Below, piece after piece: positions 33,228 through 62,687 of a stretch of 64,000 nt of DNA. Origin of the DNA: a bacterium (lineage in GTDB: Bacteria > Patescibacteriota > Minisyncoccia > Phycocordibacterales > JBBTRF01); assembly GCA_037130265.1 (NCBI GenBank), contig JBAXTI010000002.1, positions 26,870 to 90,869 of the forward strand, given 5' to 3'. Each line of letters begins with the position of its first letter. Position 1 is the stretch's first letter. Made by a program: the position numbers and the translations under genes. A model generated the notes under the pieces. It worked only from the letters and a program-made list of their open reading frames with translations, had not been told where the DNA came from and did no database searches.

Positions 33228-34844
33228 ATGATACAAAAAAAGACCCAAGTCACCCTCATTATCCTCGACGGTTGGGGCTATCGAGAAGACTCGAAAGATA
33301 ATGCAATCGCATCGGCAAAGACGCCGAACTTCACGCGACTGTGGAATGCCTCGCCACATGCGTTGCTCCAGGCGAGCGGTGAATATGTCGGTTTGCCAGA
33401 TGGGCAGATGGGCAATAGTGAGATCGGCCACGCCACGATTGGTGCGGGAAAAGTGATCGACACCGAGCTTGTGCGTATCGGCAAGGCAATCCGTACTGGC
33501 GAGTTCGACAAGAATCCTGCTTTCATCGCGCTCTTCGATCATGTCAAAAAGAATCACTCGACACTGCACGTGCAGGGGCTGCTTTCCGATGGCGGAGTAC
33601 ATAGCCATCAGGAGCACCTTTACGCATTTTTGAAGGCCGCGAAGAAAAATGGTGTCACTCGTGTTGCTATTCACGCTTTCACCGACGGTCGAGACACGCC
33701 ACCTCAGAGTGCGGCGAAGTATTTGAAGAATCTCGAAAAGGTTCTCGCCGAAGTCGGCGTTGGTTTTATCGCGACAGTGTCTGGCCGATTCTACGCGATG
33801 GATCGCGACAACAATTGGGACCGTCTCGCCAAGGCAGAGCAGGCGATGTTTGAATGCAAGGGCAATGTCTGCACGATCAAGCCGTCGGCACATGTGGAGG
33901 CGCTCTACAAGCAGGGCAAGCTCGACGAACATCTTGAGCCGATCGTGTGCATGGGTCTCAGTGCCGATGGGTCCGAGGGTTCAGGGCCAGGTGCAAACGG
34001 CTGTGCTATCGAGGAAAACGACGCGGTCCTCTTCTTCAACTTCCGCGCTGACCGTGCACGCATGCTCTCACAGAAAATGCTCGAGAAGCAAGCGAAGAAC
34101 AATGTCTGCTTCGCTACTTTTACCGAATATTCGACTGAGTTCAAATGTCTCGTGGCGTTTCCGCCAGCGACCATCGAGACTACACTTGCCGGCGAAATTT
34201 CCAAAGCAGGTCTGACCCAGGCCCACATCGCGGAGACTGAAAAATTCCCACATGCTACCTACTTCCTCAACGGCGGACGCGAGGAGCCGTACGCAGGCGA
34301 GCGACATATTATGCTCGCGAGCCGTAAAGATGTGCCAACCCACGACCTCGCACCAAAGATGCGCGCAGAAGCTATTGCTGACAAGGCGATTGAGGAAATC
34401 AGTGCAGGTACGGACTTTATTTTCATCAACTTCGCCAATCCCGACATGGTGGGACACACGGCCAATGTTCCAGCGATCATCGAAGCGATCGAAGAGACCG
34501 ACAAACAGCTCGGCCGAGTGATGGATGCAATTGTTGCGCGTGCTGCCAAGGCGGGTACCAGAAACCTGGCGTTTATTACCGCCGATCACGGCAATGCGGA
34601 GATCAACATTGACCCAATCACCGGCACCAAGCACACTTCGCATACGTTGAGCCCGGTCCCTGCGATTTTGGCTGGCGCAGTGGGGCAGGGCGCGGTTGGA
34701 CAGGCGAGTACGACAAATGACTCGAAAAACGCCGCATCTTTGCCAAAAATCCACGATGGTGGCCTCTCCGATATTGCACCGACTATTCTAGCACTCATGA
34801 ATCTTCCACAGCCTGCGACAATGACAGGAAAAAGTCTGCTATAA
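33228..34844 (+). CDS. gpmI: 2,3-bisphosphoglycerate-independent phosphoglycerate mutase
   Basis: 'LIILDGWGY', 'GNSEIGHATIGAGKV', 'SDGGVHSH' and 'ITADHGNAE' are present. It has a BPG-independent PGM N-terminal domain. Confidence 0.9.
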   Translation: MIQKKTQVTLIILDGWGYREDSKDNAIASAKTPNFTRLWNASPHALLQASGEYVGLPDGQMGNSEIGHATIGAGKVIDTELVRIGKAIRTGEFDKNPAFIALFDHVKKNHSTLHVQGLLSDGGVHSHQEHLYAFLKAAKKNGVTRVAIHAFTDGRDTPPQSAAKYLKNLEKVLAEVGVGFIATVSGRFYAMDRDNNWDRLAKAEQAMFECKGNVCTIKPSAHVEALYKQGKLDEHLEPIVCMGLSADGSEGSGPGANGCAIEENDAVLFFNFRADRARMLSQKMLEKQAKNNVCFATFTEYSTEFKCLVAFPPATIETTLAGEISKAGLTQAHIAETEKFPHATYFLNGGREEPYAGERHIMLASRKDVPTHDLAPKMRAEAIADKAIEEISAGTDFIFINFANPDMVGHTANVPAIIEAIEETDKQLGRVMDAIVARAAKAGTRNLAFITADHGNAEINIDPITGTKHTSHTLSPVPAILAGAVGQGAVGQASTTNDSKNAASLPKIHDGGLSDIAPTILALMNLPQPATMTGKSLL

Positions 34845-34851
34845 TCTGAGC

Positions 34852-39474: not shown

Positions 39475-39582
39475 GTAATTCCTTCGAGTTGTCCACACTT
39501 TTGGTGAAAAAAAGCTGGGGGTAAGGAATGATTTTTGTAGTATACTATGTGTATTCGGTCCTTCCGTAATATATACATAATA

Positions 39583-40032
39583 ATGATGAGCAAAATTGGA
39601 AATGTTGCGGCGGTCGGTCTCCTGGTAGCTGCGGGGTACTCTCTTTCGCTGGGAAGTGAAGGGCGGGCACAATTGGCGGCCGCTTCGATGGTCGTCGTTG
39701 ATTCTGGTTCATCAATATTGGCCAGCGCTCGAGATTTTACCGGAGAGTTTTCTGAAGCCGTCCAGCACCTTTCTTTTGCGAATGTGTATGCGATAGTTGG
39801 CGAGCTCTCTGGAATAGCTTCTCCAGATAAGCAAACGTCTGAGGGGTTGGTTGTTGCCGAAAAAACAGATGGGCTCGCGGATGCAAATCAGGAGGAGAAG
39901 ATACGGAGTTCTTTTTCTGACAAAGTGATCATTCATCAGGATGCTTCAAAAAAATCCGGGACGATTACGCCGGTGTTCAGAGGCGAAGAGGGTGATAAGT
40001 ATATGTACGTGATGGTTCCAGTAAAGAAATAA
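39583..40032 (+). CDS. hypothetical small membrane-anchored/secreted protein
   Basis: It has an N-terminal hydrophobic helix (MMSKIGNVAAVGLLVAAGYSL) and no recognisable motif. It is the first gene of a co-directional surface-protein array. Confidence 0.4.
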   Translation: MMSKIGNVAAVGLLVAAGYSLSLGSEGRAQLAAASMVVVDSGSSILASARDFTGEFSEAVQHLSFANVYAIVGELSGIASPDKQTSEGLVVAEKTDGLADANQEEKIRSSFSDKVIIHQDASKKSGTITPVFRGEEGDKYMYVMVPVKK

Positions 40033-40046
40033 ACTAAATAAACAAA

Positions 40047-40721
40047 ATGAACATTCAGGTGAAAAACAACATTGGCCAATCAGTCGCCCTTTCCTTGGTG
40101 GTCAGTCTCGTCATGTTTGCTTTTTTCCCGATTTTTGAGCCGGGATTCGCGGTCGCGGCTACGGCTGCGGATAACGTCGTTGTTACATTAAACGTCAGTG
40201 CCGGTATTTCGATCACTTCACCAACTGACGCCACGATGAGTAATACGATCGGCGTGTCGGTAAACAAAGCGATTGCCACCACCACGTGGAACGTGAAGAC
40301 TAATAACGTCGCCGGCTACACACTTGCCTTGAAATCTGCGACTTCTTCTACCCCGGCAATGAAGCAGGATACTGACAACACAAAAGTGATTGCGGACAAT
40401 ACCACAGGTGCCGTCACTCCAGCCTTGTGGGGTACGATGGGGGCGAGTACCGCTGAGTTTGGTTACAGTGGATACGGCACCGATGTGTCGTCGGGGACGT
40501 ACGGATCGGATACTAGCTGTGGTGCGACAAGCACTCCCTCGACGGCACTCAAGTACACTTCTTTGAGAGTCACCGACCGGACGCTTTCTTCTCGTTCGTC
40601 GACCACCACCCAGGCAGGGGTCGATACCGTCGTGTGCTACGCCGTGGAGCAGGGTAGTAACTTCTACATCGCCTCTGGAACCTACACAGCCACCCTTACG
40701 GCCACTGCTACAACTCAGTAA
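40047..40721 (+). CDS. secreted WxL-domain-like surface protein (paralog A)
   Basis: It has a Sec signal peptide with AxA site. 'TWNVKTNNVAGYTLALKSA' resembles the proximal WxL block (aGWxLtVsas) with W replaced by Y. The C-terminus 'SGTYTATLTATATTQ' resembles the distal 'GTYxgtLTWTLxD' block with W replaced by A. It is paralogous to the ORF at 41746-42501. Confidence 0.5.
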   Translation: MNIQVKNNIGQSVALSLVVSLVMFAFFPIFEPGFAVAATAADNVVVTLNVSAGISITSPTDATMSNTIGVSVNKAIATTTWNVKTNNVAGYTLALKSATSSTPAMKQDTDNTKVIADNTTGAVTPALWGTMGASTAEFGYSGYGTDVSSGTYGSDTSCGATSTPSTALKYTSLRVTDRTLSSRSSTTTQAGVDTVVCYAVEQGSNFYIASGTYTATLTATATTQ

Positions 40722-40745
40722 TAACTAGGTGTATAATACGAGTAT

Positions 40746-41735
40746 ATGAAACCCATATTTTCGCCATCTTTCCTCATACTCATCAGTGCATTTTCCATCG
40801 GCTCAATTGCGTTGCCATTTTCTTTTGCGGCAGCAGCGAATTCGGATTTTCAAATCAGTCCGGTGAATGTGGAGTCAGTAGGGGACTTTGTTCTTGAGCC
40901 AGGAAAGATTGATCTATATCTTGAGCCGGGAGAGACTGTCACGCGGACGATTTTTGTGACGAATCGTAATCCACGAAAAGTGGCATTTAAGATTGAGACA
41001 GAAGATATCGAAGGAAACAATGATCCAATAAACCCAGTCACCCTCCTTGGTAGTAAGGTGGGACCATATCCGTTCAAGGACGCTCTCCGTACGCCTAGTG
41101 ATCGATTTACTCTGGATTTTGGAGAGAAGGTTGCTATCCCGATCCAAATCAAGATCCCGCAAAATGCCTCGCCGGGTGGACACTACGCCGCGGTGATTAT
41201 TTCTAACGAACCGGACAAGGCAGAGAAAAATGTCGGCGGTGCTCGAGTAATCTCACGTCTCGGTGCTCTGTTTTTTGTGAGAGTAAAGGGTGAAATAAAA
41301 GAAGAGGGTCAGCTGAAAGAGATCCGCATTGCTGGTCCGTCGCATTGGTTTTACGAAAAAGGGCCATTCACTTTTGAAACGCTATTTGAAAATACCGGTA
41401 CGGTGCATCTCGTGCCGTATGGACAGATTCGATTGAAAAACATTTTCGGTGAAACAGTTGGTAGTGTCCCCGTAGACGGATACTTCTCTCTCCCTGGTTC
41501 TCTGAGGTACCGACAGGTGGCGTGGTCGTCTGGTTTTCTACTCGGCAGATATACAGCTACTGCAGAAATGTATCGAGGGTACAAAAACTCGAACGACATC
41601 AGCGATACAAGAACTGTTTCTTTTTGGGTGATACCAAAAATGCTGTTGCTTGAAATATTTGTAGTGATATTGCTGATTGTTCTTGCGATTCGCTACGTTT
41701 CGACTCACTTCGAATTCCGAAAGCGCGAAGTATAA
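40746..41735 (+). CDS. DUF916/DUF3324-like cell-surface protein with signal peptide and C-terminal TM anchor plus basic tail
   Basis: It has a signal peptide, a ~270-aa beta-rich ectodomain, a C-terminal helix 'LLLEIFVVILLIVLAI' and the tail 'RYVSTHFEFRKREV'. The architecture and the position between two WxL-like genes match CscA-type proteins. This is a sequence-level inference only. Confidence 0.5.
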   Translation: MKPIFSPSFLILISAFSIGSIALPFSFAAAANSDFQISPVNVESVGDFVLEPGKIDLYLEPGETVTRTIFVTNRNPRKVAFKIETEDIEGNNDPINPVTLLGSKVGPYPFKDALRTPSDRFTLDFGEKVAIPIQIKIPQNASPGGHYAAVIISNEPDKAEKNVGGARVISRLGALFFVRVKGEIKEEGQLKEIRIAGPSHWFYEKGPFTFETLFENTGTVHLVPYGQIRLKNIFGETVGSVPVDGYFSLPGSLRYRQVAWSSGFLLGRYTATAEMYRGYKNSNDISDTRTVSFWVIPKMLLLEIFVVILLIVLAIRYVSTHFEFRKREV

Positions 41736-41745
41736 TAAGGCTTTT

Positions 41746-42501
41746 ATGAGAACTCTGCTCCTTTCGATTCTGAGCCTTTGCGTCATCTCAGTCGCGTTTC
41801 CGCTCACTGTTTTTTCTGCAGTGATGAGTAGTGGAAGCTATCAGATCCAGCTCGACTCAGTGAATGTCGGAGGTCTCGATTCCGCAAGTGCAAGTTATGC
41901 GAGTCAAGATACGTTGGGTGAAACGGGGAGTGGTGGCTCTGCAAGTGCCTCCTACAATCTGAATGCTGGGTATCAGCAGATGGAACCTTCCAGCATCTCA
42001 ATCACTAGTCCGTCGGGTGCTACGATGGGGGCCGTGAGTGGATTTTCCGGTGGGACAAGTAATGGTTCCACTACATGGACAGTCATCACGGATAATTCTG
42101 CCGGATATTCGCTTTCAGTGAGGGCGTCGAGTGCTCCGGCGATGCTGGGTCAATTGAACGGCAGTTTTATTGCGAATTATGTGCCAGCCACTTCTGATCC
42201 AGATTATACTTTCGGTGTTGGTTCCGCGAGTTCGGTTTTCGCGTATACACCAGAAGGGAATCATGTGGTGCAGCGATACAAAGATAATGGCGCCGCGTGC
42301 AATGTGGGGAGCGGAACGACGGCGGATGCTTGTTGGGATGGCTTCTCGACATCAAACGTGCAAGTGTCGGGTAGTGCCAGTGCAAACATGCCGTCAGGCA
42401 CAGATACGACACTAAAATATCGTGTCGGTATCGGCGCTTCAAAATTCCAAGACTCCGGTACCTATGAGGCGACTATCATCGTGACAGCAACGACGTTATA
42501 A
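41746..42501 (+). CDS. secreted WxL-domain-like surface protein (paralog B)
   Basis: A signal peptide is present. It carries 'TWTVITDNSAGYSLSVRASS' and C-terminal 'SGTYEATIIVTATTL'. TATAAT at 41731-41736 lies 9 nt upstream of the ATG. Confidence 0.5.
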   Translation: MRTLLLSILSLCVISVAFPLTVFSAVMSSGSYQIQLDSVNVGGLDSASASYASQDTLGETGSGGSASASYNLNAGYQQMEPSSISITSPSGATMGAVSGFSGGTSNGSTTWTVITDNSAGYSLSVRASSAPAMLGQLNGSFIANYVPATSDPDYTFGVGSASSVFAYTPEGNHVVQRYKDNGAACNVGSGTTADACWDGFSTSNVQVSGSASANMPSGTDTTLKYRVGIGASKFQDSGTYEATIIVTATTL

Positions 42502-42508
42502 TACCAGC

Positions 42509-43951
42509 ATGCTCAGATTTGCTATTTGTGCCGCGTTCATATTTGCAACGCCACTCTCGCTTTTTGCGGCGACAGATTCTGATTCGGTGCAGATCCTTCT
42601 CAGTGTCAATAACATTGCTTCGACAAGCGCGACCACTACTCCACCGACAGATGGCGGGGGGCATTCGAACGCCGCTACTACAGGGAATGGTTCTCCTGTC
42701 GGACCAATTTCTCCGACTGGAAATACAAAGATTACCGTACCGATTTTTGATGGGAATGTGGTGGTTGTACCAGTGCAAAAAGAGCCCGGCACTCTGATAT
42801 TTCGATGGAAAACAACAGTCCCTGTGACGGGAACGCTAGAGTGGGGAGAAACTATTTTATATGAGATTGGGAGTAGGAACATTGCCAAAAATGTGGCTCA
42901 AAATAAGGCTAATTTTGAATACACATATCAGCAGACAGTAAAAACATTTCAACCTGGAGAGCGATATTTTTATCGTGTCAAGGTTACCGATGAAGACGGT
43001 AGGGTGTCCGGATATCAGGGGGTGTATGATGTGCCACTGTCACCGGCGATCGGTCCTCTAGAAAACGTGTCTGGTTTCTCGATTAAAAAAACAAAATATG
43101 ATTCTGAAAAACGCGAAGGTCGGGTGTTGCTGAAGTGGCAGAATCCAGATTCAGATACTTTTTCTGAAGTACGAGTGGTTCGCTCACCGTTTCATTTTCC
43201 GAAAGATGTACTCGATGGAAAGGTGGTGTACGAAGGAGGCGATGAAGCGGTGCTGGATGTGATACCTGCGCCCGCAGAGGATCAATATTACTATGCAGTA
43301 TTTGCAAAAACAAAAGACGGAAGATATTCTTCAGGCTCGATAGCAACATCTCGTCAGGTATTTGGGGGTACCGATACGTTCGAAAAAACAAGTCGCGTAA
43401 AGGACGGACTTGCACATTTTTCGCATCTCACTGCAAATAATTTTATGTTCATACGGCACGATGGGACGGATAGGGTGCCACTCTCAGCATTGTCTTTGGC
43501 ACCAGCGCAGGTGGAGGCGGGCGAAGTGGTCACCCTCTCCGCAGACTACGAATTGTTTCCCGAAGTGTTGAAGACGATATTGGTACATATTACGCCATCA
43601 AAATTCTCGTCAGCGATACTTCCTGATGCTGCTGGGCCGGCCAAAAATACCGAAAGTTTTTTGCTCAGTGTCAATGCCGACAGTAGTTCGTATGAAGCCA
43701 CGTTTTTCGTGCCAAGTGAAGGAGGTAGGTATGACATCGAGGTGCAAATTCTTGACTATCACAACGATATGTTGCAAAAAATCGTCACTCAAAACGCTTT
43801 TGAGGTAGAGGAATCTAAAACGAAGTTTGATGTTGCATTAAAAAACGCCAAGAGTCAATTTTTTGTAGATAAAAAACCCTTACTGTTAGCCATATTTTTA
43901 CTATTCATCCTCCTGACTCTTGCGCTTCGCAAAATAGTGAGTTTTTCTTAG
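42509..43951 (+). CDS. secreted fibronectin-III/Ig-like repeat protein with C-terminal transmembrane anchor
   Basis: It has a signal peptide and a Thr/Pro/Gly-rich linker. FN3-like segments include WKTTVPVTGTLEWGE...YFYRVKVTDEDG. The C-terminal helix is 'LLLAIFLLFILLTLAL' followed by RK. Confidence 0.5.
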   Translation: MLRFAICAAFIFATPLSLFAATDSDSVQILLSVNNIASTSATTTPPTDGGGHSNAATTGNGSPVGPISPTGNTKITVPIFDGNVVVVPVQKEPGTLIFRWKTTVPVTGTLEWGETILYEIGSRNIAKNVAQNKANFEYTYQQTVKTFQPGERYFYRVKVTDEDGRVSGYQGVYDVPLSPAIGPLENVSGFSIKKTKYDSEKREGRVLLKWQNPDSDTFSEVRVVRSPFHFPKDVLDGKVVYEGGDEAVLDVIPAPAEDQYYYAVFAKTKDGRYSSGSIATSRQVFGGTDTFEKTSRVKDGLAHFSHLTANNFMFIRHDGTDRVPLSALSLAPAQVEAGEVVTLSADYELFPEVLKTILVHITPSKFSSAILPDAAGPAKNTESFLLSVNADSSSYEATFFVPSEGGRYDIEVQILDYHNDMLQKIVTQNAFEVEESKTKFDVALKNAKSQFFVDKKPLLLAIFLLFILLTLALRKIVSFS

Positions 43952-44033: not shown

Positions 44034-47000
44034 ATGAAGCGTGTTTTTCACACAATTTCTTCGAGCGTAAAAAAAGCCTTTCTGGTCTTTTTCCTACTCA
44101 ACTTTGTTTTCTCTCCAGTCTTCAACGATATCCTTCTCAGCTCGAATCTCGGCGCTCCTTTGGCGGCGAGTGTTGCAGAGGCAGCTTTCAATCAGCAGAT
44201 CAACTACCAGGGCAAGCTCACCGACACATCCAACGTGGCTGTGTCAAATGGTTCGTACAACATCGAATTCAAGTTGTACACCTCGCTCACCGGCGGCACT
44301 GCGATCTGGACCGAGACTTGGTGTAAGGGAACTTCGTGTTCCGGTACTGGCACTGACAGCCGTGTCACTGTTTCAAACGGCTTGTTCAGTACGATGCTCG
44401 GCAGCACGACGGCTTTGACTGGTGTAGATTTCAATCAGCCATTGTATCTCGGTGTAAATATCGGTGGATCGGCAAGTACCCCAACTTGGGATGGTGAAAT
44501 GACCCCGCGAAAAATTCTCGGTGCAGTCCCGGCTGCATTCGAAGCGAAGCGACTCAACGGTTTGAACGACACACAGTTCTTGCGAACCGATACCACCAAT
44601 GCAACCTCGACCGCATCGACGTTCATCACTCTCACGCAGTCTGGTGCTGGAAATATTTTGAATCTCGTCGGACAAGGTTCCGCGAGTGTCTTCACCGCAC
44701 TCTCAAGCGGCAACGTCGGCATCGGCACCACCTCCCCTGGCCAGAAGCTTTCAGTCGCCGGAGATATTTTGGGAAACAACATTATCGGTAGTTATTTTAC
44801 GGCGACAACTTCAACTGCCACTTCGACTTTTAAAGGCTTGAGCGCAACTGCTATTGCTGCCAACAAATACATTACCTCCGACGGTACATTCCAATTCACC
44901 TCACCATACGCGGGGACACTCAATGTCACTACTCAACAGATTGGTCAAAACGCAATACTCAGCGCGACATCGCAGACGGGTAAGATTTTCAGCTTCGTCT
45001 CCAACGATACTTTGGCAACCATTAGTACTCAACCCGGTGTGCCGCTCGTGTTGAATACTGCGGGCAGTGAGAGGATTCGAATCGGTACCGCTGGTCTTGT
45101 CGGTATCGGAACTACAACCCCATGGAGGACCCTTTCCGTCAACGGCTCATCAGACCTCGGCACCAACGCTCTTGCTGGATACTTCACCGCCACCTCATCA
45201 ACCGCCTCCGTCTTCCCATACGCCTCCACCACCGCACTCACGGTATCTGGTACCAATGGTCTCCAGCTCGCATCAGCATTGAACGGTCCTCTTCAGGCAA
45301 ATGGGGGACTTGTCTCTGCCACCACCTCAGTCGGCGTTTTGTACGGTGGCACCGGCCTCACCTCTGCGCCTTCATACGGTCAGCTTCTCATGGGCAATGC
45401 CTCAAATGGATACACTTTGTCTGCCACCTCTTCTCTCGGCCTTCTCGGTTCATCGACGGTCTCGTCACTCACCTCAAGCTATGTGCCAAAGTGGGGAGGT
45501 TCAGCGTTTTCAAATAGCAATCTGTATGATGATGGGACAAATATCGGTATTGGAACCACGACCGGACTGTCGAAACTTACCGTAAACGGCATCGCACGGT
45601 TTAACAGCAATCAGGATCCAGGCGATTATTTCTACACCAATGGGATTTCAAGTGATGGTCGTATTGAATTCCGTTCTGCTGATAATGGCAACGGCGGAAA
45701 TCAGCGAATATTTATGTCTTCTGGGTACAGTACTGGTTGTGTCGGATTTGGAAATAGTGCCGATAGCGCTTCCAATAACTCTTTGAGTTGTGGAGGTAGT
45801 ACGGGCAACTCCATCGTCGCGACTCCAGGTGCACTTTCGATGGTTTCGGTGAATATTGGAGGTATTCCTGGTGTTGGAACAACTAAGGGTTTAAACATCG
45901 CTACTCCATATAGTGCAAGTGGCATCTCAACTAGCTCAAATAGTATGGTCGACATTAGTACTTTTTCAGTCATTGCAAACGCCGCAACAGGTCAACGTCC
46001 GGGTATTCATTTTACAGCGCTTCAGTACGCTTTTGGTGTCGGTGATACGTACGCAGGTGCCGGTGATGGTTACAGTACTCGGGCAATGACGATCGCAAGT
46101 AGTACTGAGATTGGTATCGGTACCAGTACTCCATACGCAAAGCTCTCACTTCTCGGCACTTCTGCGACAATGTCGACCTTTGCGCTTGTGCCAAAGGCTT
46201 CTCAGACCGCGAATATTTTGGATATTTACAACACCGCCTCGACTCCTGTCCTTACCTCGGTGATTACTGCCGCAGGCAAGTGGGGTATCGGCACTACTTC
46301 TCCAGGACAGATGTTGTCTGTCGGCGGAGATATCTTGGGTAATGTCCACATCGGTACATACTTCACTGCAACCTCCACTGCCGTGGCTTCTACCTTCCCA
46401 TACGCCTCAACCACTGCACTCTCAGTCTCTGGAGCTTCATACTTCACTGGCCTTTCAACCTTCGCCAACCTCCTCGCAACCGGCTCCTCAACTCTCCAAA
46501 ACCTCACTTTCATCAACGCCACTGGTACCAACGCGACGACAACGAACTTCTTCGCGACCACCGCTTCATCGACAAATCTCTTTGCTTCAAATCTTGCGGT
46601 GGGAGGAAACGTGCTGACAACAAGTGGGGGAAATGTCGGCATCGGGACGGCGAGTCCAAATGCTAAATTACACGTATCTGCTCCTTTAGATGATTTAGCT
46701 CCTCCCGCTCTCGGCACAATTAGTGCAAACACATCGGCATATTTCACAAATCAAAATCCACTCTACGGTTTGATGGTTGGAAGTTTGACAGGTGGCCCTA
46801 CTTATTTGCAAGTACAAAGAACAGATAGTGCCACAGCGTATAGTTTATTGTTGAATCCAAACGCAGGCAACGTCGGCATCGGCACCACTTCTCCAGCCAC
46901 CACTTTGTCTGTTGCCGGCTCTGGATACTTCACTACTGGTATTGGTGCGGGTGTACTCAATACCACCACAGGTACTATCAAGGCAAGCGTGAGCTATGAC

Positions 47001-50000
47001 ACGTCAGATTCTACTGGTCTGTACAAGATAAATGGCTCAACGATGTTGTCTGCTTCGACCACTAACGCCAACTATTTCTTCGGTACGAGCCCGGCAACGC
47101 TTCAAACAACCTTCTCAGGCACAAACAACTTTGGCCTCGGCTTGAACGACCTCAACGCCAATACCACAGGCTCTGGAAACGTCGCGATGGGTCGAGACGC
47201 GATGTTGGCAAATACTACGGGCGCCACAAACGTGGCGATCGGTTATTTGGCGTTCCGCAATGCAACCACTTCAGGTTCTGATAACGTGGCGATCGGTAAC
47301 TTGGCGCTTGCGGGGACGGCGAGCGTTGCAAACACGGGCAGTAACAACGTTGCCATTGGTCCATCAGCTCTGTTTGCTAACACATCGGGTGCTAGTAATG
47401 TCGCTATTGGTCCGAGTGCGCTCGCCTCAAACACCACCGGACAATTCAATATCGGTATTGGAAATCAGGCCATGACATCAAACGCGGCAGGACAGAACAA
47501 CACGGTCCTCGGTGTCAGCTCGATGAAGTATACGAAAACGGGTAACTACAACGTTGCCATCGGTACTTCGGCGAACCAGTACAACATGTCAGCTACCTCT
47601 ACGACTATCGTTGGAGAAGAGGCTGCGCAGGGTGTGAATAATGTTTCTTACTTCCAAAATGTAACTGCTTTGGGGTACCGTTCGTTGTATGCCATTACAA
47701 CAGCAGATGACACCACGGCTGTCGGTTATGGTTCTGGTGGGTCAGTAACGAGTGGAGTACAAAACACCTTTGTGGGTTCAAACTCAGGTGGAGGTGTTAC
47801 GACGGGTTCAGGCAACACACTCATTGGATACAACACAACCGCGACCGGAGCTACAATCTCAAATGCTATCGCTATCGGTTCGGGAGCGTCGGTAGGTTGT
47901 TCGAACTGTGCGGTGTTGGGCGGTACGAGTGGATCCGCAGTGATTGTCGGTGTGGGCACTTCTACTCCATATGCAAAGTTGAGTATTCAAAACGGTGTTG
48001 CCGCTACTACTACTATGGCACTTGTTCCTGCTGCTTTACAAACTGCCAACATCCTCGACATCTACAACACCGCCTCGACTCCTGTCCTTACCTCGGTGAT
48101 TACTTCCGCAGGCAAGTGGGGTATCGGCACCACTTCTCCAGGACAGATGTTGTCTGTCGGCGGCGACATCTTGGGTAACGTCCATATCGGTACATACTTC
48201 ACCGCGACCTCAACTACCGTCGCCTCAACCTTCCCATACGCTTCTACTACAGCACTCTCAGTCTCTGGAGCTTCATACTTCACCGGCCTTGCCACCCTTG
48301 GTAACGCTTCTACCACCCAGATCGGCTCGACCGGTTCTGCTTACTTCGTGACAAGTGGAACGGGAAGTGTGGGTATCGGCACCACCTCTCCCGCTACCAC
48401 ACTCTCTGTCGTTGGTAGCATTTACAATACAGGCGGTATCGGAGTAGGAAAGCTAAATACTACAGCCAACACCATTGACCTCGGTGTGGGTGCCACAGGT
48501 GCTACGTCAGGACTATACAAAATCAACGGTACCACTGTCGTCTCCGCTTCCTCGACCCTCAGTAACTTCTTCTTTGGAACGCTTCCTCCAACACTCAGTA
48601 CAACCATGACAGGTTCTAACAACAACGGTATCGGTGCTGGTGCATTAAACTCTCTCACCACAGGTCTTGAGAACAATGCTATCGGAGTAAACGCTGCTGC
48701 AAACCTCACAACTGGACAGTACAACATCGCTATTGGGCGAGATGCGATGCTCGCTAATACCGTCGGTAATAGAAACATTGCTATTGGCTATTTGGCAGAC
48801 CGAAACGCTACATCTTCATCTGTAGATAACATTATGATTGGTCAGAGTGCGGGTGCAGGTGTTGCGGCGAGTGGTCGAATCAGCACCTCTATTGGAAACA
48901 TCGGTATTGGTAACAGTTCCCTAAAACTTGTAACGTCTGGTACATATAATACGGCGGTTGGGTATGGCACTGCTTCAAACCTAGCAGATGGTTCACAGAA
49001 TATGTTCTTCGGAGCCTTTTCGGGAGCAGCCATGACTTCGGGAGGAGGAAACGCTGCGATTGGGTACAATGCAATGGGACTCACAACGTCGGGTTCAAAC
49101 AACCTAGCAGTCGGCACGAATTCTCTAATGGGAAACATCACAGGTATACGAAACGTATGTGTCGGTACGGGCTGTTCACAGTATAACCAATCAGCAACTT
49201 CCACTGTTGCCATTGGATATGCGGCGGCACAGGGTTCAAGTAACTACAGCGCACAAGGTATCGTAGCAATAGGAGATGCGGCACTCAGCTCGGTAACAAC
49301 AGCTTCGGACTACAATACCGCTATCGGGTATCAAGCTGGATACAGCAACGCAAACGGTACAGGAAATACATACATTGGCGCAAGTGCTGGTGTCAACAAT
49401 ACGTCAGGTTCAAATAACATCATGATTGGGCGAGCTACAGACTTTGCTGGCAACATTTCCTACTACATGAACATTGGAAACTTCCTATACGCTACCTCAA
49501 CAACGGCAGGAAGTGCCTTCGGGTCGTTCGGCATCGCTACCACAACACCTTCTGCTCGGTTCTCAATTAAGGGACTAGGTACTGGTACTGGTCGTTTACT
49601 CGCTTTCTCCGACTCAAGCAACGTGGAGCGACTGACGATGTTTGATAACGGTAATGTCGGCATCGGCACCACTTCTCCATGGCGAACACTTTCGGTGAAC
49701 GGCTCATCTGACCTCGGTACCAACGCTCTCGCTGGATACTTCACCGCAACCTCGACCACCGCTTCCACCCTCCCATACGCTTCCACCACCGCACTCTCCG
49801 TCTCCGGAGCTTCATACTTCACCGGCCTTTCAACCTTTGCCAACCTCCTCGCAACCGGCTCCACCACCCTCCAAAACTTCACCTTCGTAAATGCAACTGG
49901 TACCAGTGCTACCACCACCAACTTCTTTGCAACCACGGCGTCTTCAACTAACCTCTTTGCAAGTACCGCCAATCTCAACGCAGCAACCATCGGTACTACT

Positions 50001-53000
50001 CTCGGAGTCACCGGTGCTACTACTCTCTCCTCAACTCTCAATGTCACCGGCCTCACCACCCTTGGCAACGCTTCTACTACCCAGATCGGCTCAACCGGTT
50101 CTGCGTACTTTGCGACGAGTGGGGGGAATGTGGGCATCGGGACGACATCGCCTGGTTCGAAACTTGATGTAAACGGAGATATCAATGCGAACACTTATTA
50201 TCGTTATAAAGGCGGGATATTTGTCAACGCATCATCAACTAAACAGAATATGTTCGTCGGTATGGGTGCTGGAAATCTCACCACAACTGGAATTGGTAAT
50301 ACTGCGATTGGATATAATTCTGGCGCTGCACTAACAACTCAAAATGCCAGCATTAATCCTTTTCCAGTTCAAGCTGACACATTCATTGGAACGAACGCTG
50401 GCGCAGCGAATACTTCAGGAGATTCTAACGTTTTTGTAGGTTACAATGCTGGCGCAGTAAATACTTGTGGTCGCTCGACAGTTGCAATCGGTGCCTATGC
50501 TGGGGCGAGCTATGTGAGTGAGCCTGGATGTCCAGATATTGAAAATGGACTAAACGTCTTTATCGGTTCAGCTGCTGGACAATATATTACTGCTGGTTTG
50601 CATAACGTCTTTATTGGTGAAGATACTGGGCTACTCATGCAAAGTGGCTCGAACAACACCTTCCTTGGTTCGCATGCGGGCACAGGAATACTTACTGGCA
50701 ATGAAAGCACATACATCGGCGGTAGTGCTGGAGATTTCGCTTCAACTACTGGTGATGGAAACATCGGTATCGGAGTAAGATCTGCTCTATATCTTGATGG
50801 TTCCGCACAGTATAACGTTTTTCTTGGGAATGGCGCTGGCGCAGGTACTGAGGCTAATCCTAACGTAGCTTCGTTTAACACAGCTGTTGGTACTGGGGCA
50901 GGTTATCTGTTGACTACAGCCACTGGCGCAACTTTCTTGGGCTATCAAGCTGGATTGCAGGTCACCACTGGATACAGTAACACTCTTGTCGGTTATCAAG
51001 CCGGGTGGAATCTAGTGAGCGGTGTAAATAACACCTTCTTGGGTTATCAGGCTGGTTATAATACAACTGGTTCAGCAAATATTTTCCTTGGTGATCAGGC
51101 GGGAGCTTCTAATACTACTGGCTCAAACCAGTTTGTGGCCGGTGGAGATCATGCAAACTATCTCATTAGCGATGTATATTTCGGTCGAGGTATAAACAGC
51201 GCGACTCCTAGCACGTACACTATCCACGGAACTGGTGGCCTCGGTACAAATATTACTGGTGGTGATATCAATATTGCTGGTGGAGCAGGAACAGGATCTG
51301 GAGTGGGTGGAAATATCATTTTCCAGACTTCGAATACTGGGAGCTCAGGAACTACTTTGAATACGCTCTCCGAAAAAATAAGAATTACTAATTCTGGGAA
51401 AATAGGCATCGGTACTACAACCCCATGGAGGACGCTCTCCGTGAACGGATCATCCGATCTCGGTACCAACGCTCTCGCTGGATACTTCACCGCAACCTCG
51501 ACCACCGCTTCCACCCTCCCATACGCTTCCACCACCGCACTCTCCGTCTCCGGAGCTTCATACTTCACCGGCCTTTCAACCTTTGCCAACCTCCTCGCCA
51601 CCGGATCTTCCACCCTCCAGAACTTCACCTTCGTGAATGCTACTGGTACCTCAGCTACCACCACCAACTTCTTTGCTACTACTGCATCTTCTACTAACCT
51701 CTTCGCAAGTACCGCTACATTCAACGCCGCTTCAATTGGTACCACTCTTTCAGTCACTGGCCTTACCACTCTCGGCAACGCTTCTACTACTCAGATTGGT
51801 TCAACTGGTTCTGCATACTTTGCGACGAGTGGGGGGAATGTGGGCATCGGGACGACGACGCCAGATGGAAATTTAACTGTATATAATCCGTCAGGAGCAA
51901 GCACAGTAGATATTATGGGAAGTAGTGCTGGGTCATTGCTTAGGATTTCCCAGGGAAGCACTTTGGCTCAAGGAACAATTGATTTGGGAGTACACTCACC
52001 ACAGGCTGGTTTATTCCGTAGTGGCGGCACAAGTGGATTTGTTGCGTACGATACTGGGACTGGTGACACTATATTGAATAATGTTTTCGGTGGATCTAGT
52101 TTGTTGAGATTAAATTACGGTGGGACTACGGCTTTGGCAATAAATAGTAGTGGCAACGTCGGCATCGGCACCACCTCTCCTGGCCAGAAGCTTTCAGTGG
52201 CGGGAGATATCTTGGGTAATGTCCACATCGGTACATACTTCACTGCAACCTCCACTGCCGTGGCTTCTACCTTCCCATACGCCTCAACCACTGCACTCTC
52301 AGTCTCTGGAGCTTCATACTTCACCGGCCTTTCAACCTTTGCCAACCTCCTCGCAACCGGCTCCACCACCCTCCAAAACTTCACCTTCGTAAATGCAACA
52401 GGAACTAATGCAACGACAACGAATTTCTTTGCAACTACGGCGAGTTCAACTAATCTTTTTGCTTCAACTGCCACCCTCAACACTGCTTCAATTGCAAATA
52501 CTCTCAATGTCACCGGCCTCACCACCCTTGGCAACGCTTCTACTACCCAGATCGGCTCAACCGGTTCTGCGTACTTTGCGACGAGTGGGGGGAATGTGGG
52601 CATCGGGACGACGAGCCCGACGACGGCTTTGTTGGCAATCCAAAATAGTTCTGGACATTCATTCGATATATTTAGCACCGCAAATGGTTCTGCTGGGACA
52701 GCGATGACGATCAATGTAAATACTAGTTCAGCAAAAGCTCTGCAGATCAATTCAAATACGACAGACACCCCAATTACTGTGACTCACGTAGATCCTGGAA
52801 ACGTCCGAAATGCGGATATTTTCGGTATCAATATAAGTGAGACCCTAAACTCGATTGGCAATATCGGTGCCAATGATTACAAGTACGGTGGCGGAAACTT
52901 TGAGGTAACACAAAATGCTTCACCAGCTACTGCAAAAGATGTGTTCGGTGTTCGAGGAGTTTCAACAGCAAACAATGTTAATTTTACTGCGTACGGCGGA

Positions 53001-56000
53001 TATTTTAGTGGTAACTCAACGAACGGTACAGCTTACGGTGTCTATTCAGCTGCCGGAAAGAACTATTTTAACGGCAACCTCGGCATCGGCACCACCACTC
53101 CAGGCCAGAAGCTTTCGGTAGCGGGGGATATTTTGGGTAACAATATTATCGGCTCATACTTCACGGCGACTTCGACAACCGCTTCCTCGACTCTCAATTC
53201 CGCCCTTGGCATCGGCACGACAACCCCAAGTGCACGTTTGGCGATCACTGGATACGGCACCGCTGACACTGGCCGAGCTTTTGCGATCGCCAATAGTTCA
53301 AATGCTGAAAAGCTTTACGTGACAGACAGTGGCAAGACACGATTCAGTAATTTTGTGGCAATTAACTCTGATCCAAGCACAAACAACGGCACCGGCGCGA
53401 CTCTGTACGTAAAGCAGACTACGGGCTCGACAGGGTTCCCGTTCCAGGTTGTGAACACTTCAGATACAAACCTGTTCAGTGTAGATACATCTGGAAATAC
53501 AAACACAGCTGGCTCCGTCACCGCTTCTGCAAATGGATTCATTACTTCGTCCAGTGGAGGCGCTGCCTTCTTGCGCTTGACGCATACCTCCGGACGCTCA
53601 TTTGAAGTTCGCAGTAATAGTTCTTCGTATTTCTCTATCTACGACGCGACAGCTTCTGCTGATCGGTTGGTTGTGGCTGGCATTGGCACTGTTGGTATCG
53701 GCACCACCACCCCCTACGCTCAACTTTCTATTGTCAGCGGTGCCGCAGCCACCACCACTCTTGCCCTCAAGCCAGCCGCATCTCAAACCGCCAATATCCT
53801 GGATATCTACAGCAATGACGCAACTCCTGTCTTGAAATCGGTCATCACAGCGGCGGGCAAGTTCGGCCTCGGCACCACCTCCCCTTGGCGCACCCTCTCC
53901 GTGAACGGCTCATCAGACCTCGGTACCAACGCTCTTGCAGGGTACTTCACAGCTACTTCATCAACTGCCTCAGTCTTCACATATGCATCGACGACCGCAA
54001 TCTCTGCATCGGGTTCGGCATACTTTGCTACGAGTGGGGGAAATGTGGGTATCGGCACCACCTCTCCTTGGCGAACTCTCTCGGTCAACGGCTCATCCGA
54101 CCTCGGTACCAACGCTCTCGCTGGTTCCTTTACCGCAACTTCTACGACTGCCACTTCCACCTTTGCTGGCTTTATTGACGTCAATGGTACCGGCTCCAAT
54201 GCCACTTCCACCTTTGCTTCAAATCTTTGGGTGAAGGGTGCGATGAAGATCGGTACAAACTCGATCTATCTGAATGGTGCAGCGACTTCCACCTTCGGTG
54301 CAGGTATCAATCTCACCACTGGCTGCTTCTCGGTGAACGGTACTTGTGTTGGTGGTTCGAGTGCGGCAGTGGCAATTGGTAGTGCTATTACTGGCGGTAC
54401 CGCTGGCTCAGCGCTTTTCGTGGACGTTTCTGGAAATATTGCTCAGGACAATACGAATTTCTTCTGGGACAACTCGAGCAAATATTTAGGAATCCAAACT
54501 GCCACCCCAGGGTATCCTCTTGATGTAAATGGCACCGCTCATGCGACGACCTTGAACGCGGGCACCATTACCGACGGTGCAGGCTTTACTGTTACCGGAG
54601 GCACTATTGGTGGGGGTGTATGGAACGGCACAGCAATCGGTACAACGTACGGTGGCACTGGTATTAACTCTTCAGGCTCAACTGGTGTGGCTCAGATATC
54701 TTCAGGAACCTGGAGCGTCGGAGCTATCGATATTAGTTCCTCAAGCAATGTCACGGGCACATTGTCAGTGGCAAATGGCGGTACTGGCGCGACCTCATAC
54801 ACCGCTGGGTCAATTACTTTCTCAGATGGTACGAATCTTACGCAGGATAATGCAAACCTGTTCTGGAACAACTCGAGCAAATATTTAGGAATCCAAACTG
54901 CCACCCCAGGGTATCCTCTTGATGTAAATGGCACCGCTCATGCGACGACCTTGAACGCGGGCACCATTACCGACGGTGCAGGCTTTACTGTTACCGGAGG
55001 CACTATTGGTGGGGGTGTATGGAACGGCACAGCAATCGGTACAACGTACGGTGGCACTGGTATTAACTCTTCAGGCTCAACTGGTGTGGCTCAGATATCT
55101 TCAGGAACCTGGAGCGTCGGAGCTATCGATATTAGTTCCTCAAGCAATGTCACGGGCACATTGTCAGTGGCAAATGGCGGTACTGGCGCGACCTCATACA
55201 CCGCTGGGTCAATTACTTTCTCAGATGGTACGAATCTTACGCAGGATAATGCAAACCTGTTCTGGAATAATTCCACAAAGGCTTTGGGAATTGGCGATAC
55301 TGCTCCTGGTGCGAAGCTTTCGGTAGTGGGTAATGCATCGATTGGTTATGCGACTGGTCAGACCGCGCCGACAAACGGATTGTTAGTGGCTGGTAGTGTC
55401 GGCATCGCCACCACTTCTCCAAGCCTCGCAACGTTTACTGTTGAGGGAGGTTCAGGTGCCACAACAGCTTTCTTCACAGGGAGCGTCAATAGCTATCAGG
55501 AGGTGCTTAATCAAAATCGAAGCAATGGTACGAGTGCTTCGACTGACTTTGTTGCAGTAAACAATATCGGTAATGCAAGTTCTTACTACGTGAATTTGGG
55601 TATTAATAGTTCTGGTAATGCCGACCCTTCTTACACCCTCTTCTCCGCAAATGACGCCTACCTATACTCGAGTGATTCAGCCTTAAACCTCGGTACTGCA
55701 AGCACTACCAACACGAACGCAGTCATCAAATTCTTCACTGCTGGCACGGTCGCTGGCAAGGAGCGTGCCCGGTTCAGTTCGACGGGTAACTTCGGCATCG
55801 GCACGACCTCCCCTGGCCAGCTCCTTTCAGTCGCAGGTGATATTTTGGGCAACAATATTATTGGCAGCTACTTTACGGCGACGAGTACGACAGCGACATC
55901 GACCCTCGCTGGGGGATTTACCATGGGTTCAAGTGGTCTTAATGCGTATGCAAACGGCAAGGTTGGCATCGGCACAACCACCCCACAGTGGCTGCTCAAC

Positions 56001-60589: not shown

Positions 60590-60598
60590 TGCTATAAT
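60590..60598 (+). promoter_or_regulatory. extended -10 element TGCTATAAT upstream of the second LamG gene
   Basis: Read directly. It lies 13 nt before ATG 60612. An identical 12-mer, CTGCTATAATTA, sits at 62690-62701. Confidence 0.35.
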
Positions 60599-60611: not shown

Positions 60612-62687
60612 ATGATCAGAGAGACTTACAAAAATTCCTCACCTCTGGCAGTTTTATTCCTGCTCGGGACCATTTTCTTGCCGATTTTTGCCCACGCATC
60701 AGCGAAGGTGAATGTCTTGGCTCGACCGAAAAACACCTCAGGCCTCATAGGGTATTGGTCTCTGAATGGTGCGGATATGAACGCTACAACTGCATTCGAT
60801 CGTAGTGGAAATGGATACGACGGGACTTTTCAAGCCATGGGCCTCAGGAATGTTATATCGGGAAAAGTCGGACAAGCTCTTTCTTTCGATGGTTCAACTG
60901 CGTATATTTCACTTCCGAACCTTGATCGTCAAGCACCTCTTACGTGGTCATTTTGGGTAAAGCGAGCAAGATTGGGCCAGGCGAACGAGGATTTTTTTGG
61001 CGGTGACAGTAGTGGTGCGTGGGGTTTTGGATTCAATGCTGACAATACGATGTTTCTTACAAACGTCGGAATTAACAGCGTGAGTTCGACTGGTGCCATT
61101 GCAGATACAGACTGGCACCATATTGTGGTGACGTATGATGGATCAGACGTCAGTTTTTATTTTGATGGAGTTTTGGACTCGGCGCTGAGCTATTCCAGCG
61201 GCACGTATAATAGTAGCGGTGCCGCATATGCAATCGGCAGGGTGAATGTCAGTGCATATTTTGAGGGTAGGCTTGATGAAGTGCGCATGTATGATCGTGT
61301 ATTGGCTGCCCCCGAGGTGAGGACTTTGTATCAGGACTCGGCAGCGAAAATTTTAGGTCCATCGTCTGGGAACTCTAATGTGTCTAGTGGTCTTATTGGT
61401 TTTTGGTCTTTCAATAAGGAGGATGTGGTAAATGGAGCGCTTGTCGATCGAAGTATTTCGGGAAATACAGCATATCTTCAAAATATTGCTACTTCAACGG
61501 TTTACAGCGCTGGTCGTATTGGGCGAGGCCTTACTTTTGATGGTTCTGATGACTATGCGGTGACAGGCGCTACGACCTGGGGTATTACGAACACTCTTTC
61601 GATGTCTGCGTGGATTAAGACAACGGCTAATGCTGTTTCGATCGCTGAGCTTGGGCGCGTCACTGTCTTGGACGAGGCTTTGCTGTACATTCATAATAAC
61701 AGTGCGGCAATCTTCTTTTCTCAAGGGGCTGGTGTATATACTGGAGTATATGGTTCTAGGCAGGTCAATGACGGTCAGTGGCATCACGTGGTCGCTGTTT
61801 CGACTGGGCCAAGTATTGCCTGTGCAAATGTAAGGATATATGTGGACGGTGTTCGTGATACTGAGAATTGTATTACTGAAAATGTGTCGAGTCTAAGTGA
61901 CGCATCGCCACGCAGATTCTTTATTGGTTGGCGAGCTTGGGGTGGTGGTACCTCTGAGATATACAATGGTAGTGTCGATGACGTGCGTCTGTATGGTCGT
62001 GCGATAAGTGCTAGTGAAGCTCTGCAGCTGTACCGCATGGGAATTACTACAAAAGCCAATGTTTCGCAGAATACTAAGGGTCGTAACGGTCTCGTGGGTC
62101 TATGGTCTTTTGACGGGGCCGATATGGTGGCCGGGACAACAGCGTATGATAGGAGTGGTAATGGGTATGATGGCATATTGAGTGGTCTGTCTGCTCCGAA
62201 GATTGGCGTGGGAAAAATTGGTCAAGCGCTTCGGCTGCATGGGACGAGCGGTTATGTAAGTGTCTCCAATCTCGATATGAACACCTTAAGTACTTTTGGT
62301 TGGATTAACACGACTGTAGTGGGCAATCAGGTTATCGTGGCGACTCTGGCAAATGGTGGGTGGTCATTCTTCCTAGGGGCAGGTAATAACCTCACATTTC
62401 TCAAGAGAGGTATCGGTGGGGTGACTTCAAGTGCTACTATCGGGACTAATGGCTGGCATTATGTCGGGGTTACCTATGATGGTGCGACGGCAAAATTTTA
62501 CATCGACGGTGTTTTGGATAGTTCAAATGCCTATAGTCAGACATTCAACAATGGCTCCGTTGGGTACGGTTTGGGTGGTATTGAGATCGGTGGATACACC
62601 GTCACTGGCCGACTTGATGATGTTCGCGTCTATAATAGGGTCCTCACGGCGAGCGAAATTAGAACGATGTATAACCAAGCTAAATAA
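60612..62687 (+). CDS. secreted triple LamG-like domain protein, paralog of 58472-60565
   Basis: It has the same signal peptide plus three-repeat organisation (GLIGYWSLNGADM..., DDVRLYGRAISASE..., DDVRVYNRVLTASEIRTMY). Confidence 0.8.
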   Translation: MIRETYKNSSPLAVLFLLGTIFLPIFAHASAKVNVLARPKNTSGLIGYWSLNGADMNATTAFDRSGNGYDGTFQAMGLRNVISGKVGQALSFDGSTAYISLPNLDRQAPLTWSFWVKRARLGQANEDFFGGDSSGAWGFGFNADNTMFLTNVGINSVSSTGAIADTDWHHIVVTYDGSDVSFYFDGVLDSALSYSSGTYNSSGAAYAIGRVNVSAYFEGRLDEVRMYDRVLAAPEVRTLYQDSAAKILGPSSGNSNVSSGLIGFWSFNKEDVVNGALVDRSISGNTAYLQNIATSTVYSAGRIGRGLTFDGSDDYAVTGATTWGITNTLSMSAWIKTTANAVSIAELGRVTVLDEALLYIHNNSAAIFFSQGAGVYTGVYGSRQVNDGQWHHVVAVSTGPSIACANVRIYVDGVRDTENCITENVSSLSDASPRRFFIGWRAWGGGTSEIYNGSVDDVRLYGRAISASEALQLYRMGITTKANVSQNTKGRNGLVGLWSFDGADMVAGTTAYDRSGNGYDGILSGLSAPKIGVGKIGQALRLHGTSGYVSVSNLDMNTLSTFGWINTTVVGNQVIVATLANGGWSFFLGAGNNLTFLKRGIGGVTSSATIGTNGWHYVGVTYDGATAKFYIDGVLDSSNAYSQTFNNGSVGYGLGGIEIGGYTVTGRLDDVRVYNRVLTASEIRTMYNQAK

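Follow-up and report, generated by a model that had tools for sequence, protein, structure and literature searches.

The stretch of DNA considered here, called the window, comprises 64,000 nt of the contig JBAXTI010000002.1 (assembly GCA_037130265.1, positions 26,870-90,869, forward strand), from a bacterium of the lineage Patescibacteriota; Minisyncoccia; Phycocordibacterales; JBBTRF01. Positions 39547-43951 of the window hold five open reading frames (ORFs), all in the same direction (+), the last four of which (gA, gB, gC, and gD) encode consecutive secreted proteins that may build a surface appendage assembled by a chaperone and donor strands without an usher. An earlier note on this locus had already recognized the four secreted proteins, and had interpreted them as a WxL/Csc-type cell-surface complex in which the Trp residues of the small proteins are substituted. 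The extent proposed at that time, 39583-43951, does embrace the four genes, but its start falls inside the fifth one, g0 (39547-40032), which is not part of the conserved core.

The gaps between gA and gB, gB and gC, and gC and gD measure 24, 10, and 7 nt, respectively, and the gene for a giant fibre protein begins 82 nt past gD, in agreement with the earlier placement of the cluster directly upstream of a giant fibre gene. A hydropathy scan revealed an N-terminal hydrophobic signal segment, of the Sec type, in every protein of the cassette, and a C-terminal transmembrane (TM) segment only in gB (residues 295-313) and gD (residues 459-477). When read from its ATG start, gC is identical to the database protein P0001. 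The coordinates of the genes and of the elements discussed below are collected in Table 1.

Table 1. Genes and sequence elements of the locus, in positions of the window.
Feature	Position	Strand	Basis or remark
g0, 161-aa membrane protein, accessory neighbour outside the conserved core	39547-40032	+	N-terminal hydrophobic segment
gA, 224 aa, small secreted pilin-like protein, candidate polymerizing subunit	40047-40721	+	gC paralogue
gA residues 42-50, DNVVVTLNV, candidate N-terminal donor strand	40170-40196	+	just past the predicted signal-peptide cleavage site
gB, 329 aa, signal peptide, two immunoglobulin (Ig)-like domains, C-terminal TM helix; WxLIP/PapD-like chaperone candidate	40746-41735	+	
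gB residues 170-182 (SRLGALFFVRVKG), candidate complementing (G1-like) strand	41253-41291	+	invariant residues, AlphaFold2 (AF2) model
gB C-terminal TM helix, followed by the tail RFEF(K/R)K	41628-41708	+	hydropathy, AF2 model
gC, 251 aa, small secreted PamT-like pilin	41746-42501	+	match to the PamT model
gC residues 27-80, conserved N-terminal extension	41824-41985	+	conserved columns
gD, 480 aa, signal peptide, N-terminal strand, linker, FN3 domains, third domain, C-terminal TM; PamR-like tether/terminator candidate	42509-43951	+	
gD N-terminal strand, residues 25-33	42581-42607	+	motif conserved in relatives
Giant fibre protein of 4810 aa, secreted; a conserved neighbour	44034-58466	+	
Two secreted Laminin_G_3 proteins, 697 and 691 aa	58472-60565 and 60612-62687	+	Pfam PF13385

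The cassette recurs in other members of the candidate phyla radiation (CPR). A scan with the gB profile, in which one genome was taken per GTDB species, yielded 80 loci. All of them encode gA, gB, and gC, and 73 encode gD, always after gC; a protein with the N-terminal domain of the giant fibre lies downstream of gD in 60 of the 80, and many of the other contigs end soon after gD. The order gA-gB-gC-gD-large fibre protein is invariable across these 80 species-level CPR genomes, so that the four-gene cassette does recur beside large proteins, a possibility raised in the earlier note. Relatives of gB and gC were found in metagenome-assembled genomes (MAGs) only, and the specific names that they carry are Patescibacteria, Paceibacterota, Minisyncoccia, Pacebacteria, and Kaiserbacteria. 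Most of the 80 loci bear names of the Parcubacteria/Paceibacteria type, such as Taylorbacteria, Nomurabacteria, or Nealsonbacteria. All named relatives come from MAGs of the Patescibacteria/Paceibacteria type, and the proposed occurrence of such a secreted cluster outside Firmicutes is borne out. Four contigs with a full cassette (L025, L038, L057, and L077) were deposited as MAGs of Burkholderiales, an "uncultured archaeon", Bdellovibrionales, and Saccharofermentanales, and many further ones have been labelled "Candidatus Saccharibacteria" by an automated pipeline; these oddly labelled contigs are probably mis-binned or mislabelled CPR contigs.

As judged from their sequences, the small proteins gA and gC are paralogues, as had been claimed, with a similarity far beyond chance both in BLASTP (E=2e-12, 30% identity over 164 aa) and in the comparison of their family profiles with hhalign (E=3.8e-37, probability 99.9%, 167 columns). 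A search of 1.84 billion proteins gave 317 representatives of the gA family at E<=1e-3. The members of this family share a conserved Cys pair (C158/C197 in gA) and an N-terminal motif, D-x-V-[VI]-V-T-L-x-V, the L and V of which are found in 37 of 37 sequences. The distance from a conserved Tyr to the C-terminus is 11 residues in all sequences of both gA and gC. In chaperone-usher systems, it is the C-terminus of the pilin that is held by the chaperone.

A known system with which these proteins can be compared is Pam, reported for the CPR classes Saccharimonadia and Microgenomatia, two filaments of which have been solved from Ca. Mycosynbacter amalyticus (Saccharimonadia) (Troman et al., bioRxiv 10.64898/2026.03.03.709456). 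According to the same preprint, the pilins PamA, PamB, and PamE are two-domain proteins joined by donor-strand exchange, PamA and PamB consisting of a beta-sandwich N-terminal domain, a linker strand, and a truncated Ig C-terminal domain; PamT is a single-domain tip pilin devoid of a donor linker. PamC and PamD are PapD/FimC-like chaperones with a C-terminal membrane helix, PamR is a tether in which FnIII domains are combined with an additional strand at the N-terminus and a membrane helix at the C-terminus, and a tail-fibre-like gene is found beside pam operons (bioRxiv 10.64898/2026.03.03.709456).

The protein gC matches the NCBIfam model NF058579 (PamT, "CPR-type pilus protein") with E=9e-10 and 38 bits over positions 4-130. 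The same model matches 33 of 35 gC relatives, and some of these alignments cover positions 9-239 of the 241 of the model. On this sequence evidence gC is a distant homologue of PamT and not an orthologue, and gA is tied to PamT via gC alone. The predicted fold of gC is that of a donor-strand pilin, and in the fold search chaperone-usher pilins, both classical and archaic, outscore those of the TasA type and dominate the list. At the sequence level, no solved Pam pilin was matched when the PDB was searched with the gA and gC profiles, and no Pfam fimbrial or SCPU family matched gA, gC, or the 35 gC relatives. The sole PDB match of the gC profile, 9jdi_C ("BtpiA"), is non-significant (E=0.09) and aligns over W-T-v-t-T-D-n-s-a-G-Y-s-L.

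The fold list also bears on the idea that the small proteins make a chaperone-independent fibre of the TasA/archaeal bundling-pilus type, or that they are surface proteins with Ig folds, unrelated and encoded together by chance. Folds of the TasA type are outscored by the chaperone-usher pilins in that list, and the TasA domain PF12389 was not detected in gA, gC, or the gC relatives. A PapD/WxLIP-like gene lies between the pilin genes in all 80 loci and is sometimes fused to gC, and no signal peptidase is encoded among the flanking ORFs that were scanned with Pfam (~16.5-39.5 kb and 58.5-63.8 kb of the window). Both versions of this idea are considered very improbable.

Upstream of its pilin domain, gC holds an extension (residues 27-80) with highly conserved columns (S-x-x-Y-x-I-Q-S-D-S-I-N-x-G-G ...), which lies within the match to the PamT model and is modelled with low confidence (predicted local distance difference test, pLDDT, of 45-51). 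In larger relatives this extension is kept between lectin-type domains and the pilin domain. It may act as a linker or as a donor segment.

The claim that gA and gC are WxL domains with a substituted Trp has not stood up. The strings on which it was built are present, "AGYTLALKSA" and the C-terminal GTYTATLTATATTQ in gA, and "AGYSLSVRAS" and GTYEATIIVTATTL in gC. However, PF13731 gave zero matches for gA, gC, and the 35 gC relatives at E<=10, the fold search gave no WxL match for them, and the solved WxL chain 9i25_A, which is present in the PDB set, was not among the hits of the small proteins. In the comparison by hhalign with a reference alignment of 35 proteins carrying PF13731, the initial values (P=0.004-0.0004) stemmed from the signal peptides; after trimming these, and with reversed-profile controls, the probability was ~1%. 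In the trimmed alignments it is only the last beta-strand that aligns (Y-x-A-T-I-T-x-T-A versus Y-x-T-T-I-T-W-T-L), and "AGY.L" is not aligned with "AGW.L". A MAFFT alignment of eight sequences in which the WxL motifs apparently matched was discounted, given that the hhalign signal had been driven by signal peptides. The earlier note had itself named two outcomes that would speak against it, a match of the small proteins to another fold such as a pilin and the lack of any similarity to DUF916. Since gC and gA match a pilin fold, the first of them is what was found, and the second was not, because gB resembles WxLIP. A relation to the WxL system is thus supported for gB, which is related to DUF916/WxLIP, and not for gA and gC, in which no WxL domain can be detected.

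The protein encoded between the two small ones, gB, had been described as DUF916-like with a C-terminal membrane anchor, a description that hydropathy, the helix in the AF2 model, and the profile match to WxLIP1 sustain. PF06030 (WxLIP_PGBD, DUF916) is the top Pfam family for gB, with 17.6 bits, a score that lies under the cut-off of 27.3, and it is also the commonest Pfam family among 35 gB relatives (14/35). When the gB family profile was compared with all PDB sequences, the only significant match was WxLIP1 of E. faecium (9i25_C, 9i1y_A; E=1.6e-4), the next one having an E of 0.15. The comparison by hhalign with eight annotated WxLIPs from Enterococcus, Listeria, Lactococcus, and Lactiplantibacillus plasmids gave a probability of 85.5% in local mode (96 columns within the DUF916 domain) and 92% in global mode, versus <=3.7% for the reversed control. 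PF11797 (DUF3324), the other WxLIP domain, was not detected in gB, and PapD_N gave no Pfam match. According to these sequence comparisons, gB is a WxLIP homologue at the superfamily level, but not a member by Pfam thresholds.

The AF2 model of gB (pLDDT 88.9) consists of two beta-sandwich domains followed by a terminal helix (298-321), and its best two-domain structural match is again WxLIP; as modelled, its architecture and structure are PapD-like. The feature that defines PamC and PamD, a PapD/FimC-like chaperone with a C-terminal TM helix, is therefore found in gB, and an incomplete Ig-fold pilin and a two-Ig-domain chaperone are both present in the cassette as predicted folds. Six residues of gB (S170, R171, G173, L175, R179, and G182) are invariant in 35 sequences, the first five of them forming the motif S-R-x-G-x-L-x-x-x-R. 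This strand is preceded by a flexible loop (155-169); in the model, the pLDDT dips at residues 151-170 and the strand spans 171-180. The loop and the strand 170-182 align with the loop-plus-strand region of EfmWxLIP1, the part of WxLIP that, according to a prediction, enters WxL with a beta-strand and so completes the WxL sandwich (PMC10599100). Residues 170-182 of gB may thus be a complementing strand. The tail that follows the membrane helix (41709-41735) has the form R-F-E-F-[KR]-K, with F322 and E323 invariant in 35 sequences, a conservation that suggests a contact on the cytoplasmic side.

The fourth protein, gD, is the membrane-anchored FN3 protein that had been described at this position: its family profile matches the FN3 domains of titin and neogenin (E=2e-15), and the protein ends in a TM helix and a basic tail. 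No LPXTG partner is encoded in the locus, in line with the anticipated use of TM anchoring. Directly after the signal peptide, gD shows the strand [DN]-x-I-x-V-x-L-x-V, the L of which is found in 36 of 37 sequences. A strand of the form [VI]x[VI]xLxV is therefore common to the N-termini of gA and gD, and the hidden Markov models (HMMs) of the two families cross-match there (E ~0.006-0.008). The features of PamR (FnIII tether, N-terminal strand, and C-terminal TM) are all found in gD, a correspondence of architecture only. In most gD homologues (for instance that of L011, at 11775-13058), the N-terminal strand is immediately followed by a module with four Cys, G-C-N-N-N-G-I-C-E-x-G-E-x4-C-P-x-D-C; in the gD of the window and its closest relative, in L005, a linker rich in Ser, Thr, Pro, and Gly takes its place.

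In other CPR, gB and gC are fused in frame, as seen in five cluster representatives (P0451, P0462, P0492, P0495, and P0508) and in the locus L089 (8001-9602). The membrane helix of gB is followed in these proteins by a short basic loop, "KIIKK", and then by the signal peptide of gC, a layout that is topologically viable, and the fusions count as support for a functional coupling of both proteins. The cluster of L089 comprises a g0-like gene (by its C-terminal motif), the fusion, and a gene for a 686-aa gD-like protein with a tail of the CarboxypepD_reg type, and it has neither gA nor a fibre gene. As it consists of a gB-gC fusion and a gD-like gene, the minimal core would be a chaperone, a PamT-like subunit, and a tether. 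Relatives of gA of 390-610 aa were considered as PamA-like pilins and rejected, as five of them are gB-gC fusions and others combine Laminin_G_3 or DUF2341 with a gC-type unit. In these metagenomic proteins, Laminin_G_3 (P0413, P0464, and P0510) or DUF2341 (P0482 and P0505) precedes the gC-type unit or sits inside it, an arrangement which, by analogy, resembles two-domain tip adhesins.

These data allow weighing a static surface complex of the WxL/Csc type, in which gB would be a permanent scaffold that holds gA and gC by strand insertion, gD and the giant protein would be further members, and nothing would polymerize. The protein closest to gB in both sequence and structure is indeed WxLIP, in WxL clusters, too, a small protein is followed by WxLIP and then by a large surface protein, the binding between WxLIP and WxL is stable enough to have allowed a co-crystal (9i25), and a minimal cluster of gB-gC fusion and gD exists. 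On the other hand, gA and gC are not WxL proteins according to Pfam, hhalign, or the fold search; their fold fits polymerizing pilins, and gC is a homologue of PamT. Such a complex would not need the N-terminal strand motif shared by gA and gD, and the locus encodes neither an LPXTG partner nor a large protein in which a domain resembling gA or gC occurs, as the gA and gC HMMs found no domain in the giant protein or in the LamG proteins encoded after it. A static complex is accordingly regarded as unlikely.

The giant protein holds two Peptidase_S74 (endosialidase/intramolecular chaperone) domains, at about residue 4368 and beyond, and a C-terminal Bact_surface_Ig-like domain. Its repeats, G-N-V-G-I-G-T-T-x-P-x-x-K-L-x-V, match the "cell wall surface anchor" fibres of Bdellovibrio (Bd2133; 8ond) with E=1e-8. 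The mature N-terminus, A-[IF]-N-K-Q-I-N-Y-Q-G-K-L-T, is near-invariant in 32 relatives, its N-terminal domain has no PDB or Pfam match, and the protein has no membrane anchor besides the signal segment. Within the gene, a 399-bp stretch is repeated in tandem (2.0 copies, 99% identical, 54462-55267), which doubles a 133-aa segment of the fibre and suggests a recent expansion. Immediately past the giant gene come the two LamG genes, the first after 5 nt and the second after a further gap of 46 nt, and then a gene for GAPDH. They encode paralogous proteins of ~695 aa, each with an N-terminal signal segment and three Laminin_G_3 domains (PF13385, E=9e-73 and 1e-67), in which no pilin-type domain was detected. 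From their position, they may be members of the system.

The conservation of this fibre raises the question of whether it is the appendage itself, gA, gC, and gD being a basal adaptor that captures its mature N-terminus and the cassette serving as a platform for export, anchoring, and display. In favour of such a platform, gD is followed in the 60 loci mentioned above by a large protein that has this N-terminal domain, many other contigs being too short, the N-terminus to be captured is almost invariant in a protein without any other anchor, and the fibre resembles the prey-recognition fibres of Bdellovibrio. Nevertheless, that N-terminus shows no detectable similarity to the strand motif of gA and gD, the giant protein has no pilin domain, and the cluster of the L089 type has no fibre gene. 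This explanation seems somewhat less likely still than the static complex.

The interpretation favoured here, with a probability of about 55%, is that the locus encodes a Pam-like surface appendage, usher-less, chaperone-assisted, and joined by donor strands, which represents a Paceibacteria-type variant dedicated to host attachment. It is hypothesized that gB, by means of its invariant strand 170-182, acts on gA and gC just after their export and caps their incomplete Ig fold. The subunits would then be joined through donor-strand exchange, with the N-terminal strand of gA ([VI]x[VI]xLxV) as the donor, so that the cassette would form a filament in which the PamT-like gC might be distal or an adaptor. 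The protein gD, which has the same N-terminal strand motif, would insert into the last subunit and anchor the whole in the membrane. As to the giant fibre and the LamG proteins, they could be displayed with the appendage or act beside it, and the system would serve to attach an episymbiotic CPR cell to the host.

Several points weigh against this Pam-like appendage. The 38 bits of gC in the PamT model are far under the equivalog cut-off of 240 bits, and the families of gB and gD match no other NCBIfam Pam model, the existence of such models not being established. The solved Pam filaments are made of the two-domain PamA and PamB, no counterpart of which is encoded between 39.5 and 62.7 kb; since PamT lacks a donor linker, a pilus made only of PamT-like subunits is an extrapolation. 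For the family of the cassette, the formation of filaments is inferred. The assignment of donor strand and groove comes from motif patterns, and the fusion plus gD of L089 is as compatible with a short anchored complex as it is with a long pilus.

As regards the surroundings of the cassette, the flanking genes scanned (~16.5-63.8 kb) are dedicated to housekeeping or envelope biosynthesis. The ORFs checked over the ~25 kb that precede the cassette included no ATP synthase gene, and no further large gene of the beta-barrel type, as expected for an outer-membrane usher, is present in the locus. The product of g0 has no Pfam or NCBIfam match, and g0 was rejected as a member of the system, as it is present in just 9 of the 80 related loci, even with jackhmmer included. 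No tRNA or Rfam feature was found in the window, and a scan of the locus for promoters and terminators gave no excess over the shuffled expectation. A perfect TATAAT is located 12-19 nt upstream of the ATG of gB (40732-40737), gC (41731-41736), gD (42497-42502), the second LamG gene (60593-60598), and a gene for an AI-2E transporter (34840-34845). The element TAnA[AT]T occurs at -22 to -10 in 8 of 35 genes, versus a background of 2.1%, and nearly none of the 35 shows a Shine-Dalgarno motif. In the related loci, enrichment of an upstream element of the TAnA[AT]T type is kept for gD only (11/35), and not for gC. This pattern might reflect leaderless transcripts or transcripts with a very short leader.

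CPR bacteria are ultra-small and are thought to live attached to a host, and their attachment organelles are almost unknown, Pam being the first dedicated CPR pilus (2026 preprint). A pilus based on a chaperone and donor strands without an usher was therefore already known in CPR from that preprint, with another composition and in other classes. What is new is a variant of the Paceibacteria type that combines one chaperone with a pair of single-domain pilins and regularly precedes giant fibre genes, together with the gB-gC fusions and the homology between chaperone and WxLIP, a link drawn neither in the Pam preprint nor in the small part of the WxL/WxLIP literature covered here. Conserved to the same degree as Pam, present in at least 80 species-level genomes, and placed ahead of a large fibre gene, the cassette is a strong candidate for the host-contact apparatus of a clade of the Parcubacteria/Paceibacteria type.

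More tentatively, and with appreciably less confidence than the Pam-like appendage itself, it can be proposed that WxL/Csc (through WxLIP), Pam (through PamC and PamD), and the cassette (through gB) are homologous, the membrane-anchored protein with two Ig domains being the shared core of a single ancient system, usher-less and based on a chaperone and strand complementation, in bacteria that lack an outer membrane. If this were true, WxLIP would act in the membrane of the bacterium itself, as a PapD-type chaperone or a platform for assembly. The current proposals that it binds peptidoglycan or the host, or that its helix is inserted into the membrane of the host, would then not hold. Donor-strand complementation or exchange would be the way in which WxL surface complexes form, and Paceibacteria would also use the system to mount giant fibres for the recognition of prey or host. 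Through the homology of gB with WxLIP, the WxL/Csc loci, the function of which has been unclear since 2006, gain a concrete mechanism that can be tested, in which a PapD-like protein anchored in the membrane would act on its partners by strand complementation.

Four known systems can be compared with the cassette. A likeness may lie in the archaic (sigma) chaperone-usher pilins of the Csu type, in which the first strand has alternating hydrophobic residues and the last one is of the type G-x-Y-x-D-T-[LV]-x-V-T-V. CPR cells are generally described as devoid of an outer membrane. Unlike the archaic chaperone-usher pili (Csu of Acinetobacter and CupE of Pseudomonas), the cassette has neither outer membrane nor usher, its chaperone is membrane-anchored instead of soluble, and SCPU and PapD_N are not matched. 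The giant fibre resembles those of Bdellovibrio bacteriovorus (PDB 8ond, 8ol4, and 8ojn) in its repeats, and both come from bacteria that attach to bacteria; it differs in being ~10x longer, in its two Peptidase_S74 domains, and in its distinct conserved N-terminal domain without a PDB match.

The WxL/Csc clusters of Lactobacillales and Listeria encode a small WxL protein, a large WxL protein, WxLIP (DUF916, DUF3324, and TM), and an LPXTG protein (PMC1534035, PMC9772566, PMC10599100). With them the cassette shares the order of a small secreted protein, a WxLIP-like protein, and a large surface protein; gB has the size of WxLIP, its order of signal peptide, two Ig domains, and TM, and similarity to DUF916, and in both cases the Ig protein is predicted to supply a strand that completes its partners. 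Contrary to those clusters, the small proteins of the cassette show neither Trp-x-Leu motifs nor any match by PF13731, profile, or fold, and they stop at the last strand, whereas WxL proteins run past it; there is no LPXTG protein, PF11797 is not detected in gB, and the large protein lacks a C-terminal WxL-like domain.

Compared with Pam, the cassette contains two single-domain paralogues instead of the two-domain pilins PamA, PamB, and PamE, and one chaperone instead of two. Its tether gD has 480 aa and a third domain, versus the 32.8 kDa stated for PamR, its hosts belong to a clade of the Paceibacteria/Parcubacteria type that is not named in the Pam preprint, and the ORFs checked in the upstream ~25 kb include no ATP synthase genes. 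The likenesses, which for gB and gD are those of architecture and fold only, include the CPR lineage, a pilin distantly related to PamT in its sequence (gC), a chaperone with a TM helix (gB), and an FnIII tether (gD), as well as a tail-fibre-like neighbour, conserved Cys pairs in the pilins, and an assembly that dispenses with an usher or any trans-envelope machine.

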